This document shows positions 2,951 through 32,082 of a stretch of 64,000 nucleotides of DNA, piece after piece. Under the pieces are notes generated by a model, which saw only the letters and a list, made by a program, of their open reading frames with translations, did not search any database and was not told the DNA's origin. Numbering within the stretch: position 1 is the stretch's first letter; the number at the start of each line of letters is the position of its first letter. Origin of the DNA: Alphaproteobacteria bacterium (lineage in GTDB: Bacteria > Pseudomonadota > Alphaproteobacteria > UBA828); assembly GCA_965243375.1 (NCBI GenBank), contig CBDEUT010000008.1:787111-851110 (forward strand), in the 5' to 3' direction. The position numbers and the translations under genes are program-made.

Positions 2951-4579
2951 TCACCCTTGTTGACGGGTGACGCCCGGGATTGTCGGAGCGAAGTTCCAGG
3001 GCATGAGCTCGTCGATGCGTGACACGGGGTGCATGTCGACGATCCGGCGCAGGGTGTCGGTCAGGTAGACCTGCGGATTGATGCCGTTGAGCTTGCAGGT
3101 GCCGATCAGGCTGGCACACCGCGCCCATGTCCTGGCGCCGTCGTCGCTGCCGGCGAAGAGCGCGTTTTTCTTTGTGAGCTTCACCGGGCGGATGAGGTTC
3201 TCGATGGGGTTGGTGTCCATCTCGATACGCCCGTCATGGAGGAACCGGCACAGGCCGTCCCAGCGCTTGAGGGCATATCGGATGTGCTTGGCGAGTTCGG
3301 ACGCGCTGGACAGACGGTCGAGCTGGGCCTCAAGCCAGGGCCGCATGGCCTCGACGATCGGTGCCGACAACTCCTGCCGCGCCTTCAGCCGAAGCTCCGG
3401 CGGGTGGCCGCGCACCATGGCCTCGATCCGGTACAGCGCCGCGATCCGTTCGAGGATTTCCTCGCACACGGGCGAGGCCGTGCCGCGCTGGAAGTCGACG
3501 AAGCGTCTCCGCCAGTGGACCCAGCAGTAGGCAAGCACCCATGGGCTGACCGTCTGCTTCGGATCGCCGAGCGCGTCGTACACCCTGTAGCCGTCCACGT
3601 GCAGCGGGCCGCCGCCGGTGTAGCCCCGCATCAACTCAAGAGCGACCTTCGCACTTCGATGGCGCGAGTGGTGGAACACCACGATCGGCGGGTCGGCCCC
3701 GCCATAGCCGCGCTGATCGCGGGCGATCGCCCACAGATAGTCGAGGCGCGTCTTGCCGGTCCCCGGCGCCATCACCGGCACCGTGGTCTCGTCCATGAAC
3801 AGACCGTCCGACGCCTTGAGGTGCTCGATCATCCGGTCGATCACCGGGGCCAGCACCTGCATCCCGCGCCCCGCCCAGTTCCCCAGCATGGTGCGGTCGA
3901 GGTCGATCCCCTCGCGACGGTATGCCTCGCTCTGACGGTAGAACGGTTGGTGATCGGCGAACTTGGCGACCAGCGTGTGCGCCACCAGCGCCTCGGTCGG
4001 CAGGCCGCGCGGCACCAGATATTCCGGCGCCGGCGCCTGGGTGCTCTGTTTGCCTTCGCAGGCGCGGCAGATGTATTTCGGCCGGATCGTCACCAGCACC
4101 CTCAACTTCGCCGGCACGACGTCGAGCCGCTCGGTGCGGTCCTCGCCGACCTTCACCATCTCGCCGCAGCCGCAAGGGCACTCCGCGCTCTCCGGCTCGA
4201 TCACCTTCTCGAAGCGTTCGAGGTGCTTGGGCAGATGGCCGAGGTTGCGATTGGTCGGCTGTGGCTTGCGCCGCTGCCTGCCGGTCGCCGCGTCGGCCTT
4301 CTCCTGGGCTTCCGCCAGCATCCCCTCGGCGACCGCGATGTCCTCGAACAGCGGCAGCCGGTCCTGATCGGCATGGCGCTTCTCCGAGCGCGCGCCCCAC
4401 ACGGCATGGTTCAGCGAGGCGATGATCCGCTCCAGGCGTTCGCGCGCCCGCTCGGACACAGCCAGCGCGTCCTCGGCGGCCTTGCGCTCGGCACGCTCCT
4501 TCGCAAGTTGGGCTTCGACGGCCGCCAGACGGCGTTGCAGATCACTCACGGGAACGGCGCTTCCCATGCTGGTTATCAT
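2951..4579 (-). CDS. tnpC: IS66-family transposase TnpC
   Basis: 542 aa with a coiled-coil N-terminus, CPCGCG/CRAC zinc-finger motifs and a DDE domain. Paralog of the 499-2085 ORF. Confidence 0.9.
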   Translation of the reverse strand: MITSMGSAVPVSDLQRRLAAVEAQLAKERAERKAAEDALAVSERARERLERIIASLNHAVWGARSEKRHADQDRLPLFEDIAVAEGMLAEAQEKADAATGRQRRKPQPTNRNLGHLPKHLERFEKVIEPESAECPCGCGEMVKVGEDRTERLDVVPAKLRVLVTIRPKYICRACEGKQSTQAPAPEYLVPRGLPTEALVAHTLVAKFADHQPFYRQSEAYRREGIDLDRTMLGNWAGRGMQVLAPVIDRMIEHLKASDGLFMDETTVPVMAPGTGKTRLDYLWAIARDQRGYGGADPPIVVFHHSRHRSAKVALELMRGYTGGGPLHVDGYRVYDALGDPKQTVSPWVLAYCWVHWRRRFVDFQRGTASPVCEEILERIAALYRIEAMVRGHPPELRLKARQELSAPIVEAMRPWLEAQLDRLSSASELAKHIRYALKRWDGLCRFLHDGRIEMDTNPIENLIRPVKLTKKNALFAGSDDGARTWARCASLIGTCKLNGINPQVYLTDTLRRIVDMHPVSRIDELMPWNFAPTIPGVTRQQG

Positions 4580-22630: not shown

Positions 22631-22918
22631 ATGACCCAAAAACCCACATCGGATGACGAGGTCTATTCGCTGATCGGCGGCGCGCGCGGCATGGAGGCGC
22701 GCAGCGGCGACGCGATCGAGCGCGCGCGGGCGCTGCCGATCTGGTCCGGCGCGGTCGAACCCGCGCTGCTAAGCGGGGGCTTGAGCAACATCAACCTGAC
22801 GGTGGACGACGCCGGCGAGCGCTACGTGATCCGGGTCGGCGAGGATGAGCCCGTCTTCGGCGTCTTTCGCGACCACGAGCTCCTGGCCTTTCGCGCGGCT
22901 CATGCGGCAGGTGTGTAA
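22631..22918 (+). pseudogene. N-terminal fragment (95 aa) of a second choline-kinase-like phosphotransferase gene, interrupted by the tandem-integrase element
   Basis: MTQKPTSDDEVYSLIGGARG...GGLSNINLTVDDAGERYVIRVGEDEPVFGVFRDHELLAFRAAHAAGV* parallels the N-terminus of the 18217 kinase. It ends at the 12-bp repeat followed at once by TAA. Confidence 0.7.
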
Positions 22919-23301
22919 CCCTTAACGCCCGAAGGGCGTCGAGCAACGCCCCTCCACACGCAAGCGCTTCGGGCCGAGGAAACCATGCGGTTCCCACAGT
23001 TTAGCCCGAGCGGCGCTTGAGCGCCCGGCCTCGCCGCGCATGCGATGAAGACGGTTCCGGACCCGCCGCGCAGCTTACCGGGTCATTATAGGAAGCACGC
23101 CTGGCGGCGCAAGCGCGCTGTTGGCGGTCGTGGTCGACGGGACGGAGGTTGTCCCGGTAGTCAATAGGGGGGACCCGCGCGGCTTCGCGTAGCGCCTCGC
23201 GTTACGCGGAGCGAAGACGCGCGGGGGGTGCCTGTTGACCCACCGGGGCAACCGGGCCGCGTGCTCGTGCCGGCGCCACGACGACACCGGCGGCGATGCC
23301 G

Positions 23302-24477
23302 TCACGGATCGGACGCGCCGGGGGCGAGCGACATCGCCTCGGCGATGATGCTGCCGACATGCTCGGCCGCCGCGACGAGGTGGTCGTCGGCCAGATGCGC
23401 ATAGCCGGCGGTCGTGGACTGGCGGCGATGCCCGAGCAGCTTGCCGACCAGGGGCAGGTTCTCGCCGGACATGACGGCGTGACTCGCTACGGCGTGTCGC
23501 AGATCGTGGAGCCGCGCCCGGCCGATCCCGGCGTCGGCGCAGATCGCGTGCCATCGGACCCGCACCTGGTCCTGCCACCATGCGCTTCGGGCGTGCTCGG
23601 GGAACACGAACGCGTCGGGCCGCCGCTCGCCGGGGAGCGCATCGAGGATCGCGCGCGCGGGCGAACCCAGCGGCACGGTGCGCGGCCCGGCCTTGGCGTC
23701 GTCGAGCTGGATCGTGTCCCGCCCGATGTTGCGCCAGCGCAGTGTCAGCACCTCGCCGCGCCGGCAACCGGTAAGCGCGAGCAGCCGGATCGCGGCGACG
23801 GTCTCGGGCCAGTCGGCGGCGCGCGCGTCGAGCGCACGGCCGAGCCGTTCGAGCTCGCCGGTGTCGAGGAAGCGCGCGACCGGCTTCTTCGGGTTCATCC
23901 TGATCCCGAGACAGGGGTTGGTGCCGGGCGCCCGCCATCCCCACTCCTCGGCCCGGAACATCATCGCGCGCAGGATCTCCAGCGCCCGGTTCGCCGCGCC
24001 GGGCCAGTCGCGGCTCGCGGCGTCGAACCAGGCGGCCACGTCTTCGGGGCCGAGCATGTCGAGCCGCATGGCGCCGAACGCGGGCAGGATGCGCGCCTTG
24101 AGATAGATGTGCACGGTCCGGCGTCCCGACGGCTTCAGGCCGGGGCCGCAACAGCGCAGATACTCGTCGGCGAAGTCCTTCACCGTCGGCGCGGCCCTCG
24201 CCTTGCGGGCCTCCTCGGCGGGATCGTCGCCCGCGCGGATACGCGCCAGCATCTCGCGGGCGCGGCGCCGCGCTTCGGCCAGCGCGATCTCGCCGTGCCG
24301 GGCTAGGCCCAGGCGCCGGGTCCGGCCGTCGATGCGCGCCTGGACGATCCACACCTTGCGCCCGCTCGGATGGATGCGCAGCCCGAAGCCCGGCAGCGCC
24401 CGGTCGAACAGGATGGTCTCCTTCTCGCCGGGCCGGCTGTCGCGGGCGAGCTTCGCGGTCAGGTCAACCGTCGGCAT
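23302..24477 (-). CDS. Tyrosine recombinase / integrase, P4-type with N-terminal DUF4102-like arm-binding domain (int-1)
   Basis: 391 aa. N-terminus MPTVDLTAKLARDSRPGEKETILFDRALPGFGLRIHPSGRKVWIVQ..., catalytic box HDLRHAVASHAVMSG...LLGHRRQSTTAGYAHL (R..H..R..Y). Confidence 0.9.
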   Translation of the reverse strand: MPTVDLTAKLARDSRPGEKETILFDRALPGFGLRIHPSGRKVWIVQARIDGRTRRLGLARHGEIALAEARRRAREMLARIRAGDDPAEEARKARAAPTVKDFADEYLRCCGPGLKPSGRRTVHIYLKARILPAFGAMRLDMLGPEDVAAWFDAASRDWPGAANRALEILRAMMFRAEEWGWRAPGTNPCLGIRMNPKKPVARFLDTGELERLGRALDARAADWPETVAAIRLLALTGCRRGEVLTLRWRNIGRDTIQLDDAKAGPRTVPLGSPARAILDALPGERRPDAFVFPEHARSAWWQDQVRVRWHAICADAGIGRARLHDLRHAVASHAVMSGENLPLVGKLLGHRRQSTTAGYAHLADDHLVAAAEHVGSIIAEAMSLAPGASDP

Positions 24478-25660
24478 GGCCGCCCCCTCCCTCCCGCTCC
24501 CGGCCGCTTCCGGCCAGCGCCGCCTGGATGCGCCCGGAGACGCGCTCGGCGGCCTCCGCGACCGACCGGTCCGACAGGTGGACGTAGCGCTCGGTGGTCT
24601 CGACCAGGGCGTGGCCGAGCAGCTTGGCGATGGTCACCATGTCCACGCCGTTCATGGCGGCGACGGAGGCCCAGCTATGCCGGCAGTCATGCAGGCGCAC
24701 GTCGAACAGCCCGGCCTCGCGGCGGATACGGCCCCACTGCACGTCGATGTTCCGGATCGGCCGGGTCGGCGGGCGGCCCGGAAACAGATACGGGCAGTCC
24801 TCGCCGTAGCGCGGGATCGCATCGATCACCGCGCGCGCGGCTCCCGACAGCCACACCGTGCGCGGCCCCGACTTCGAATCGGGAAGCATGATGCGCTTGT
24901 CCCTGATCCAGTCCCATTCGAGCGCGAGGACCTCGCCGACCCGGCAGCCGGTCAGCAGCAGCAGGCGAATGACGGCGACGACATGCGGGCACCAGAACTC
25001 GTCGCGGGTGAGCACGGCGTTGAGCCGGGCGAACTCCTCGGGCGTGAGATAGCGTTCCTTGGGCGCCATCGGGTAGCGCCGGGTGTTCCGGCAGGGGTTG
25101 GTGTTGTGGAGGCGATAGCCCCACAGTTCGGCCGTCTTCATCATCACCGACAGCACCGGCATCGCCCGGTTGGCGGTGCCGGGCCGGTTGGCCATGGAGG
25201 CGAACCAGTCCTGAACGTGCTCGACCGCGATGGCGTCCACGGTCATGTCCCCGAAGGCGGGCAGGATGACGTCGCGGATGAAGCGCCGGTTGCCCGCCAG
25301 CGTGCTCGGCTTCCAGTGACGCGCGTGACGTTCGATGAACTCCTCGGCGAACTCCGTCATGGGACGGCCGGGATATCGGGGGCCGTCCCCCGTCTCCGGC
25401 GTCTCAACCAAGGTCGTGAGCGCCCGGCGCGCCTGGTTGCGCGCCTCGGGCAGGCTCATCCGGTCGGCAGGTCCGAGGGTGACCGAACGCACCCCGCCGT
25501 CGGGCAGCCGGCGGCGCAGGAAGAAGCGCCGGGCGCCGTTCGGGTAGATGCGCACACCGAGCCCGGAGATCGCGTCGTCCCAGACGGCATACTCCTTCTC
25601 GCGGGGCCGGGCCGCCGCGATGCGACGGGCGAAGGAAGGGCGGGAATCTGGCTTTGCCAT
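24464..25660 (-). CDS. Tyrosine recombinase / integrase, P4-type paralog (int-2); overlaps int-1 by 14 bp
   Basis: 398 aa. MAKPDSRPSFARRIAAARPREKEYAVWDDAISGLGVRIYPNGARRFFL..., catalytic HDCRHSWASVAAMNG...LLGHALVETTERYVHL. Confidence 0.9.
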   Translation of the reverse strand: MAKPDSRPSFARRIAAARPREKEYAVWDDAISGLGVRIYPNGARRFFLRRRLPDGGVRSVTLGPADRMSLPEARNQARRALTTLVETPETGDGPRYPGRPMTEFAEEFIERHARHWKPSTLAGNRRFIRDVILPAFGDMTVDAIAVEHVQDWFASMANRPGTANRAMPVLSVMMKTAELWGYRLHNTNPCRNTRRYPMAPKERYLTPEEFARLNAVLTRDEFWCPHVVAVIRLLLLTGCRVGEVLALEWDWIRDKRIMLPDSKSGPRTVWLSGAARAVIDAIPRYGEDCPYLFPGRPPTRPIRNIDVQWGRIRREAGLFDVRLHDCRHSWASVAAMNGVDMVTIAKLLGHALVETTERYVHLSDRSVAEAAERVSGRIQAALAGSGREREGGGGHADG

Positions 25661-25853
25661 GTGGCGGCTCCTTAGTCAGGGGCCGCGCGGCAGCGGGTCA
25701 ATATAGGAAGCGGCCGCGGCGGCGATTGCACAGGCAAGCCACGGGGCCGGAAGAGACAGGGTGTACCCTAACCCGCTCTAACTACGGAACTTTCTCTCCA
25801 TCCATGCATCGGCGAGACCAGGCAGAAATTGCGCGGTACGGGCGGCAGGTGTG

Positions 25854-26549
25854 GCGCCCGAGGTCGTCTATGGCGAGCCGGGTCTCATGGTGATCCGCTT
25901 CATCGAAGGCCGCTCGCTCCTGCCTGCCGACGTGCGTGAGCCAGCGCGTCTCACCGAGGTGGCCCGTCTCTTTCGCCGGCTTCACGATGAAGCACACAAG
26001 CATCTGGACTCGACGGGCTTCATGTTCTGGCCATTCCAGCATCAGCGTTCGCACATTCGGCTGTTGGAGCAGCGCTCCGATCGGCTTTACGAGCGCTGGC
26101 GCGACATGCTGCCGGGCCTCGCTCTAGCGAACGAGGAGCTGGAGCGCGCGCTCGGCCCGGTCAACGTGGTCCTTGGCCACAACGACCTCAACCCGCAGAA
26201 CATCATGGACGACGGCGAGCGGCTCTGGTTCGTGGATTGGGAATTCGCGGGCTTCGTGGTGGACCTGTTCGATCTCGGCGTGCTGGCCATGAATATCGAA
26301 ATCGGATCCGGCGAGAGCGACGTCTTTCTCGAGAACTACTATGACGAGCCGGTCACCGACGCGCTGCGCTACCGCTTCGCGGCCGCCAAAGTCGCCGCGG
26401 CCCTGCGCGAGACGACCTGGAGTTTCGTCTCCGAGATGATGGACAAGCCCATCGACTTCGATTTCCGCATCTATTCCACCATGAATGCGGACCGCTACGA
26501 GCGCATGTACGCCGAATTCAGCGAGACCTACGGCACGCCGGGGCAGTAG
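25854..26549 (+). pseudogene. C-terminal part (231 aa) of the interrupted choline-kinase-like phosphotransferase
   Basis: APEVVYGEPGLMVIRFIEG... contains HNDLNPQNIM and FVDWEFAGF motifs. The frame is open upstream only back to 25782, with no genuine start. It is contiguous in sense with the 22631-22918 fragment. Confidence 0.7.
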
Positions 26550-30767: not shown

Positions 30768-32082
30768 AGCTCATCGCCATCAGCTCGATCGGGTGATGGG
30801 CGCGAGTCGGGTGCGCGCGGCCTTCGCCGACCCGCTCCATCCCCTGCACGATGTGCTCGCCGGCCAGCGGACACTCCGAGGCGAGATAGGCACGGCCGCT
30901 CTCGGCCGCCTGCCGGATGACCGGCTCGCCGACCTTCATGCCGGTCTCGAAATTCCGCTTCATCACGCCCCAGGTGCCGCCGTGCCCGGCGCAGCGCTGC
31001 ATCATCAGCACGTTGCTCTGCGGGATCATGCGCAGCATGACCGCAGCCTTCGCGCCGATGTCCTGGGCCCTGGCGTGGCAGGCCTGATGGAGCGCGACAT
31101 CGCCCTTGAGCGGCGCCAGCCCCTCGGCAAGCCCGTCTTCGCGGGCGATGCCCACGACGTACTCCGAGATGTCGCTGGTGTGCTCCGCGAGGCGCGCCAC
31201 CGCCGGATCGTCCGGCAGGTACTGCGGCCACGTCGTCTTCATCATCAGCGCGCACGACGGGATCGGGGCCACCACGTCCCAGCCCCGCTCGATCCAGGAG
31301 CCGAGCGCGGTCGCGACGCGGCGGGCACGCCGGCACACCTCGGCAACGTCGCCGCGCTCCAACTGCGGCATCCCGCAGCATTCGTCGTAGACGATCTGGG
31401 TCTCGACGCCGTTCTTCGCGAGCACGCCCTGGGCGGCGCGGCCGATGCCCGGGTTGTTGTACTCGACGAAGCAGGTCGCATAGATCACGGCCTTGCGGCC
31501 GGCCGCCGGCGCGCTCTCGTTCACCGGCGGCGGGGACGCCCTGGCCCGCCGGCTGAAGCGCCGGGCATGGAGGCGCGGCAGCACCGCGTCTCGGTGAATG
31601 CCGGCGAACGCCTCCATGAGCGACCGGGCGAGCCGGTTGCCCCGGCGCGCCGACCAGTTGGCGAGCGGCGCGAAAGTGCCGAGCCAGCGGCCGTTGCGGT
31701 CGGTCTCGCCCAGCGCGCGCTCCATGGGGCCGACCGCGCCGTCGCGCAGCGCTCGCGCCCGCTGGCGGACCATCAGCGCGGGAAAGTCCACCGCGTGCAC
31801 GTGCGGCGGCGTGTAGGGGCAGACCGGATAGCACATGTCGCAGAGCGTGCAGGCCGCACCCACGCTCTCGAAGCCGGCGCTCTTCACCGCGGCCACGCCG
31901 CCGGCTCCGTCGATCAGGTCGAAGAGCCTCGGGAAGCTCTCACAGAGGTCCTCGCAGCGACGGCAGGTGTGGCACACGCCCGCGACGCGGCACAGCTCGT
32001 CGTCGAGTGCGCCTGCGTCGAGGTACGCGGGCGCCTCCCAGTCGATGGCAGGGCGCGCTTCGGACCCCCCCTGCCCCGCCAT
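30751..32082 (-). CDS. (Fe-S)-binding protein with two 4Fe-4S ferredoxin motifs and CCG domains (GlcF/GlpC/LutA-like)
   Basis: CHTCRRCEDLC and CTLCDMCYPVCPY cluster motifs, then CCG-type boxes (DECCGMP, PSCALMM, QRCAGHGG). Start placed at MAGQGGSEARP (32082) after AAGGGCGG. Confidence 0.75.
   Translation of the reverse strand: MAGQGGSEARPAIDWEAPAYLDAGALDDELCRVAGVCHTCRRCEDLCESFPRLFDLIDGAGGVAAVKSAGFESVGAACTLCDMCYPVCPYTPPHVHAVDFPALMVRQRARALRDGAVGPMERALGETDRNGRWLGTFAPLANWSARRGNRLARSLMEAFAGIHRDAVLPRLHARRFSRRARASPPPVNESAPAAGRKAVIYATCFVEYNNPGIGRAAQGVLAKNGVETQIVYDECCGMPQLERGDVAEVCRRARRVATALGSWIERGWDVVAPIPSCALMMKTTWPQYLPDDPAVARLAEHTSDISEYVVGIAREDGLAEGLAPLKGDVALHQACHARAQDIGAKAAVMLRMIPQSNVLMMQRCAGHGGTWGVMKRNFETGMKVGEPVIRQAAESGRAYLASECPLAGEHIVQGMERVGEGRAHPTRAHHPIELMAMSYGIDT

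Follow-up and report, generated by a model that had tools for sequence, protein, structure and literature searches.

Prokaryotic mobile elements driven by tyrosine recombinases were assigned to only five groups in a survey from 2023 (PMC10214605). We analysed a stretch of 64,000 nucleotides (the window) from an alphaproteobacterial assembly of the UBA828 lineage (GCA_965243375.1, contig CBDEUT010000008.1, positions 787,111 to 851,110), in which an insert of 2,938 bp (window positions 22916-25853) splits a choline/ethanolamine-kinase-like gene. The insert encodes two overlapping, paralogous tyrosine integrases, which we designate IntA and IntB. It is probably a small site-specific integrative element in its integrated state, with an intA-intB operon of arm-domain integrases as its sole genes. 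In its chemistry and general logic it follows known site-specific integrative elements. An initial sequence-only reading of the window had suggested that the element type may be undescribed. Literature searches returned no published description of such an element, and a broad classification of tyrosine recombinases makes no mention of paired arm-domain integrases. The element is a member of a family of two-integrase integrative elements that is widespread and apparently undescribed.

Among the described systems, islands and integrative and mobilizable elements (IMEs) of the P4/SXT type share with this element the Arm-DNA-bind_3 (DUF4102), SAM-like and catalytic architecture of the integrase, an attP with long arms around a short core, a core direct repeat at the ends, and tandem accretion at the regenerated site. 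However, these islands rely on one integrase, in most cases accompanied by a separate Xis or AlpA, whereas the element has two integrases and no Xis. They also insert at the 3' end of tRNA or tmRNA genes rather than within a kinase ORF, while the element can measure only 2.9 kb, lack cargo and occur in several copies per genome. Recombinase-in-trio (RIT) elements resemble it in being small, usually cargo-free, widespread and multi-copy, in consisting of overlapping tyrosine recombinase genes only, and in having a mobility that is inferred from genome comparison. RIT elements carry three 'simple'-type recombinases (RitA, RitB and RitC) without arm-binding domains (PMC8138268) and have terminal inverted repeats (PMC10214605, Table 1). 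In contrast, the window copy and about 40 relatives have two arm-domain integrases, no inverted ends and a direct 12-bp core, so that the distinction from RIT drawn in the sequence-only reading was borne out.

Tn554 also inserts site-specifically, sometimes within a gene, and has two tyrosine recombinases, both of which are required, as we propose here. It further needs a third protein, TnpC, leaves a 6-bp footprint and has Firmicutes hosts (PMC10214605, PMC3414803). TnpA and TnpB fall in another subgroup, and the element, unlike Tn554, lacks a third gene and has a conserved 12-bp repeat. The SE and GInt elements are similar in having a multi-recombinase module, at an island end, in their sequence-specific insertion and in their several copies per genome, and they insert within protein-coding genes, as does the window copy. 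They need four core genes (IntA, Tfp, IntB and Srap, or GinA-D) and have imperfect terminal inverted repeats and 6-bp footprints; SE is found mainly in Gammaproteobacteria, and GInt in Gamma- and Betaproteobacteria (PMC10214605; bioRxiv 10.1101/2022.09.22.508988). One of the SE/GInt proteins (Tfp/GinC) is a catalytically dead recombinase-fold protein, whereas both genes of the element are catalytically complete and the additional SE/GInt genes are absent. Two further candidates were set aside. The int1-int2-hp1-hp2 module of tmexCD-toprJ in umuC, evaluated as a known two-integrase element, belongs by its description to the four-gene SE family, and the BIM ('bipartite module') elements have one recombinase and a non-recombinase protein.

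XerC/XerD, and the putative recombinase pair of ICEPmu1 and ICEMh1, are like the element in that two paralogous recombinases are thought to share an asymmetric core. ICEPmu1 is an integrating element flanked by direct repeats of 11-13 bp with a putative XerCD-like pair (PMC6861422). ICEPmu1 and ICEMh1 are, however, large conjugative elements in tRNA-Leu. IntA and IntB scored 46-54 bits against the XerC/XerD models, whose cut-offs lie at about 330 bits, and they differ from XerC/XerD in bearing arm-binding domains.

We observed that the 12-mer GCGGCAGGTGTG occurs exactly at 22904-22915 and at 25842-25853 when the window is scanned. The N-terminal kinase fragment (22631-22915, plus strand, 95 codons) meets a TAA at 22916-22918 that lies within the element, and the C-terminal fragment (25854-26549, plus strand, 231 codons) has Choline_kinase and APH domain matches. 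Joining the two gives a 326-aa protein, for which we found homologues of the same length (P0001 and P0002) at 96% and 92% identity and 100% coverage. The DNA of both homologues (loci L001 and L002) is colinear across the junction and contains the 12-mer once, with one mismatch at each locus, and both loci share with the window an ABC ATPase gene upstream and an alpha/beta hydrolase gene downstream. The rejoined homologues, the colinear empty sites and the common neighbours establish that a precise insertion of 2,938 bp took place in a once-intact gene. The sequence-only reading had described the split kinase and both copies of the repeat correctly and had called for an uninterrupted ortholog with a single 12-mer, which these two loci provide; the possibility that the fragments came from different genes is excluded by the full-length homologues.

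The element has a G+C content of 70-74%, compared with 60-67% in its flanks. The kinase site contains CCGCGC five bases past the 12-mer, and the same hexamer is found in the head of the element, which suggests that the recognition sequence exceeds 12 bp. No tRNA or tmRNA gene and no match to an Rfam family was present in the window. The ORF check revealed no further credible ORF within the insert, including any Xis-like one, domain matches and the ORF check revealed no transposase gene, and no inverted pair joins the two ends of the element. The only other match to the 12-mer in the window with at most one mismatch is ACGGCAGGTGTG at 31960-31971, which could be a potential secondary site or a chance occurrence.

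We also looked for the same integrase pair with different flanks and found at least five such copies. Two of these (L091 and L093) are 100.0% and 99.97% identical to the window copy over 2,951 bp, both cores included, and the others are 98.6% (L003), 98.3% (L004) and 92.5% (L089) identical to the window element. In all five, the similarity begins and ends at CACACCTGCCGC, which is the 12-mer in the integrase orientation, and the flanks are unlike the kinase. Since the identical repeat bounds independent copies with other flanks, the 12-mer is the element's own att core and not a copy of an arbitrary target, which corrects the sequence-only reading of the repeat, and the flanking direct repeats equal this core at both ends. 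A target duplication of the transposase type is contradicted, because the duplicated sequence would then vary between copies. As copies that are 100% identical occupy another site, the comparison shows that the element has recently been mobile. No match to the 5' end of the element was found by an exact-match scan of the JGI metagenomes, and none to IntA by a scan of the IMG/VR viral contigs.

Some of these copies showed further features. L003 is a Rhodospirillales bin and L004 a Gammaproteobacteria bin, both about 98-99% identical to the window element, and their occurrence in different classes reflects either very recent transfer or a mis-binned repeat. In L092 (8516-12938), the tail of a copy that is 100% identical to the window element is interrupted by a 4.4-kb insertion at element coordinates of about 3005-3009, with a 5-bp duplication; this insertion encodes an rve-type transposase, AAA_22 and AAA_25 ATPases and an HTH protein. 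Several element copies are contigs of about 3 kb.

Both integrases are encoded on the minus strand, intA at 24464-25660 (398 aa, upstream) and intB at 23302-24477 (391 aa, downstream), and the two genes overlap by 14 nt. Both proteins match Arm-DNA-bind_3, Phage_int_SAM_3 and Phage_integrase, and they are 39% identical to each other over about 370 residues. The catalytic residues are R240, K263, H324-x-x-R327, H350 and Y359 in IntA, and R239, K262, H324-x-x-R327, H350 and Y359 in IntB. Thus, the prediction of two intact, paralogous P4-like integrases in an insert with no other credible ORF was upheld, and degeneration of one of them, which had been raised as an objection, is contradicted by the full catalytic set in both. 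The R-K-HxxR-H-Y set is kept in 41-42 of 42 IntA and 38-40 of 42 IntB sequences, the exceptions being truncated sequences. In comparison with four relatives, dN/dS was 0.11-0.40 for IntA and 0.20-0.34 for IntB. Judging from these ratios, both integrases are under purifying selection, and they look functional and co-inherited.

The spread of the family was surveyed by a scan of one genome per species, which gave 79 loci. At about 40 of these, an IntA homologue (65-73% identity) is directly followed by an IntB homologue (64-74%). The genes usually overlap as in the window, and a subgroup has a gap of 50-100 nt instead. The related pairs lie in genomes assembled from metagenomes, from at least five phyla. 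Among the hosts in which intact pairs sit on long contigs are Alphaproteobacteria, Gammaproteobacteria, Thermodesulfobacteriota, Binatia and Acidobacteria, while degenerate copies were seen in Nitrospirales, Spirochaetia and others. Several genomes have two to three copies of the element, and the record names suggest a sponge or coral metagenome origin for many of them. More distant pairs occur on plasmids of two cultured bacteria, where both are annotated merely as generic integrases. On an Aurantiacibacter atlanticus plasmid (L082, 4103-6405), an IntA-like gene is followed by an overlapping IntB-like gene at about 42% identity, and the megaplasmid of Shewanella oneidensis MR-1 (L083, 3950-6447) likewise has an overlapping pair in the same order. 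Because these pairs keep the IntA-IntB order at 39-43% identity, the duplication must be old and the gene order fixed. A RelE/ParE toxin-antitoxin pair comes after the Aurantiacibacter integrases.

The layout of the element was derived from an alignment of upstream regions and a profile of the downstream conserved block; the cores of the relatives were located with the tail model, as an exact k-mer search for long flanking repeats was mostly unsuccessful. In the common layout, a core of the form CACACC-NN-(A/C)CGC is followed by a head of about 180 bp and by intA and intB; after cargo of up to about 6 kb, which may be absent, come the tail (about 200 bp) and a second core. There is one head, one tail and one core pair for each integrase pair. 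Subfamily cores match at both ends (CACACCCCACGC, CACACCCGACGC and CACACCGGACGC), and the central core positions are CCA, CGA, GGA or, in the group of the window copy, TGC. Three loci have 1-3 mismatches between their own two cores, which is the distribution expected if attB differed from attP. These alignments show that conservation extends over many phyla for the intA-intB pair as well as for the head and tail.

Reading along the integrase strand, the window copy begins with the attL-like core at 25842-25853, an exact 12-mer, followed by the conserved head (25661-25841, minus strand; P' arm and intA leader), which we delimited from the upstream regions of relatives. Past intB, an imperfect 29-nt inverted repeat lies at 23160-23239, just 3' of the IntB stop codon, and could serve to terminate the operon or to bind a protein. 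The conserved tail (22916-23118, minus strand; P arm) begins about 180 nt past intB and was defined by an nhmmer match at 23038-22904 together with the tail alignment. It holds an invariant GCTCAAGCGCCGCTCGGGCTAA box and, at its terminus, the perfect hairpin ACGCCC-GAA-GGGCGT at 22925-22939, which had been noticed before at coordinates one base off (22926-22940). The attR-like core at 22904-22915 closes the element, reading GCGGCAGGTGTG on the plus strand and CACACCTGCCGC in the integrase orientation.

Cargo, where present, sits between IntB and the tail, and includes TbpB-like lipoproteins, an ankyrin-repeat protein, an outer-membrane beta-barrel protein and an ion channel. Defence functions are also found, namely a Dcm methylase with a restriction enzyme and Vsr, a type IIG restriction-modification enzyme, and HigB/HigA toxin-antitoxin pairs. 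The description of the element as cargo-less therefore holds for the window copy and does not define the family, in which relatives carry 1 to about 6 kb of cargo. The window copy is the minimal, cargo-free family member, and this form is itself mobile, as the copies at other sites show.

In most relatives, and in three of the four other contexts of the window's subfamily, the tail-like sequence of another element abuts the 5' core. A head-to-tail array of two elements was found in L005 (1-8279). The presence of tail, core and head directly 5' of intA in many relatives fits tandem accretion. The sequences past the 3' cores of the relatives compared contain no consistent ORF and no conserved target gene, which argues that the element does not target ORFs. 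As the other copies adjoin tail-like ends and such an end is missing at the kinase, the latter appears to be a secondary site. The target is a DNA motif and the kinase site an incidental look-alike, so the earlier proposal of an element aimed at an ORF does not hold.

Several observations concern these upstream neighbours. Distant integrase pairs (about 40-46% identity) adjoin the IntA-IntB element, in either orientation, in L014, L016, L035, L045, L047 and L051. The tail-like sequences 5' of the core fall into further classes, one in L009, L010, L013, L017, L023, L034, L042 and L043 (class 2), and another in L016, L035, L036, L045, L048 and L057 (class 3). They are unlike the family's own tail, yet the TCAAnCGCCGC box, a hairpin at the terminus and the same core recur in them, which suggests that a single attachment site serves several families of elements. 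In L084 (7930-9727) and L085 (6888-9810), which come from different phyla, the island upstream of the element ends in the same genes, for a YAcAr-domain protein and an opposite-strand ORF of 270 aa, with SSB and DUF4326 genes also in L085. It may be that a larger conserved element usually lies upstream. L010, L012 and L022, from one metagenome-assembled genome, share more than 5 kb 5' of intA at 96-100% identity and diverge within intB and beyond, a pattern that simple independent insertions do not explain.

In the mechanism that we propose, the element would form a circle with an attP made up of the tail, the 12-bp core CACACCTGCCGC and the head. Recombination of the attP core with a matching chromosomal sequence would insert the circle and leave one core at each end, giving attL (host, core, head) and attR (tail, core, host). 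In the window, attB would have been a chance look-alike in the kinase ORF, comprising the 12-mer and CCGCGC five bases on, and the gene would have been inactivated. IntA and IntB would jointly form a heteromeric recombinase, like XerC/XerD, on the asymmetric core, with each integrase probably recognising arm sites and one side of the core, in the manner of XerC and XerD at dif. Promoter-like sites in the head and tail would control integrase expression, that of the tail reading across the junction in a circular or tandem form. Every insertion would yield two perfect cores, which would be the best targets for the next element, and arrays would result.

The joint action of the two integrases is the part that we infer, and a heteromeric recombinase is plausible. 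Its support is indirect and comprises the obligate pairing, the intact catalytic residues of both proteins and the asymmetric core. Instead, one protein alone could be the integrase, with the paralogue serving in control of directionality or excision in the absence of Xis, in a second att specificity or in regulation, and with no heteromer being formed. FimB and FimE are tandem paralogous recombinases that act separately, which lends support to such a division of labour; as no Xis-like ORF is present, a directionality function must sit elsewhere, and the genes of some relatives are separated by the gap of about 50-100 nt rather than overlapping. We nevertheless regard this arrangement as doubtful, since both proteins keep the full catalytic set and the arm-binding domain family-wide, dN/dS is similar for the two, the order is fixed even in pairs of about 40% identity, and each element has a single core pair. 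The window copy could also be a dead, immobile remnant of a cargo-bearing island, and a deletion between IntB and the tail, where relatives carry their cargo, could produce the cargo-free form. This is highly improbable, and the related objection that the copy is a deletion derivative is contradicted, as the cargo-free form occurs in at least four distinct junction contexts at 92-100% identity, with both genes intact and the cores identical, and the window copy and L091 do not differ at any of 2,951 bp.

Least credible to us is a chance origin, in which two separate elements became nested or abutted, or the 12-bp repeat is a transposase target duplication or a coincidence. Elements of the family do stack; the overlapping pair is, however, kept as a unit at about 40 loci, with only one head and one tail for each pair. 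A target duplication conflicts with the identical flanking repeat in independent insertions and with the lack of a transposase gene and of terminal inverted repeats. The interpretation as a site-specific element with two cooperating integrases has points that weigh against it in turn. The activity of either integrase, and the need for both, are predictions, and the sequences flanking the core have no obvious inverted pair of binding sites. We recovered no excised circle or attP junction of the exact window element. The upstream partner integrases of the tail-core-head junctions usually lie beyond the 5-10 kb that was fetched, so that other architectures are possible there. Finally, a consensus scan for promoters and terminators returned none in the window copy, in which the -35 box of the tail site matches at 3 of 6 positions.

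These promoter-like sites coincide, at their -10 boxes, with a motif, GCTTCCTATA(T/A)TGACCCG, which is present on both sides of the element at about 25695-25713 and 23079-23097. In the head it forms part of GCTTCCTATATTGACCC (about 25695-25713), about 50 nt 5' of the intA ATG, and in the tail it lies about 192 nt before the 3' end of the element, a position that is conserved in all 16 elements examined. The tail-side motif is the -10 box of a promoter-like site directed at the core, which reads TTGATC-17-TATAGT or TTGACT-16-TATAGT in relatives. In the window, TTGCGC (23107-23112) is followed after 16 nt by TATAAT (23085-23090), again directed at the core. The sites of relatives pass the scan (L034, 10623-10651; L024, 9545-9572). 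The tail ends in a GC hairpin and a T-rich run, scored as a terminator in L024 (9718-9733), and invariant sequence blocks lie between the promoter-like site and the terminal hairpin. The tail could therefore be the source of a transcript of about 165 nt, or drive transcription across the junction into intA in a circular or tandem form. The repeated motif had been taken for arm-type binding sites; its presence in both arms was confirmed, and the motif, which coincides with -10 boxes, may equally be a protein-binding site. We also evaluated the tail as an RNA. A six-helix structure drawn by hand was 91.5% paired over 28 sequences, with an RNAalifold covariation term of -0.97 and folding z-scores of -1.6 and -0.7; no measure rose above shuffled controls, and covariation support beyond these controls was not found in the 28 sequences.

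If the module works as a cargo-free unit of 2.9 kb, it would be a further group of elements and among the smallest autonomous site-specific ones, and it would offer a compact system to test whether arm-binding integrases act as heteromers. Tentatively, and as a possibility that falls short of an even chance, we suggest a wider interpretation. In this, IntA and IntB would be an obligate heteromeric, arm-assisted recombinase that defines a sixth group of prokaryotic tyrosine-recombinase elements, beside integrative and conjugative elements (ICEs) with IMEs, SE, GInt, RIT and Tn554. The elements would be self-mobile 'gene cassettes' of 3-9 kb, which carry defence and host-interaction cargo, cross phyla in apparent sponge and coral microbiomes and stack at their own regenerated cores, and in which a tail promoter or small transcript ties integrase expression to the circular or junction state. 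The family could show one route by which defence and eukaryote-like genes pass between distant phyla in one habitat. Adjacent 'site-specific integrase' genes in a metagenome-assembled genome can also be a repeat that breaks genes and assemblies.

With regard to the interrupted kinase, we observed a second choline-kinase-like gene on the syntenic contig L002 (584-1534), about 3.5 kb upstream, where it adjoins a gene of the sarcosine/dimethylglycine oxidase type and ABC permease genes. Such a paralogue may buffer the loss of the interrupted kinase.

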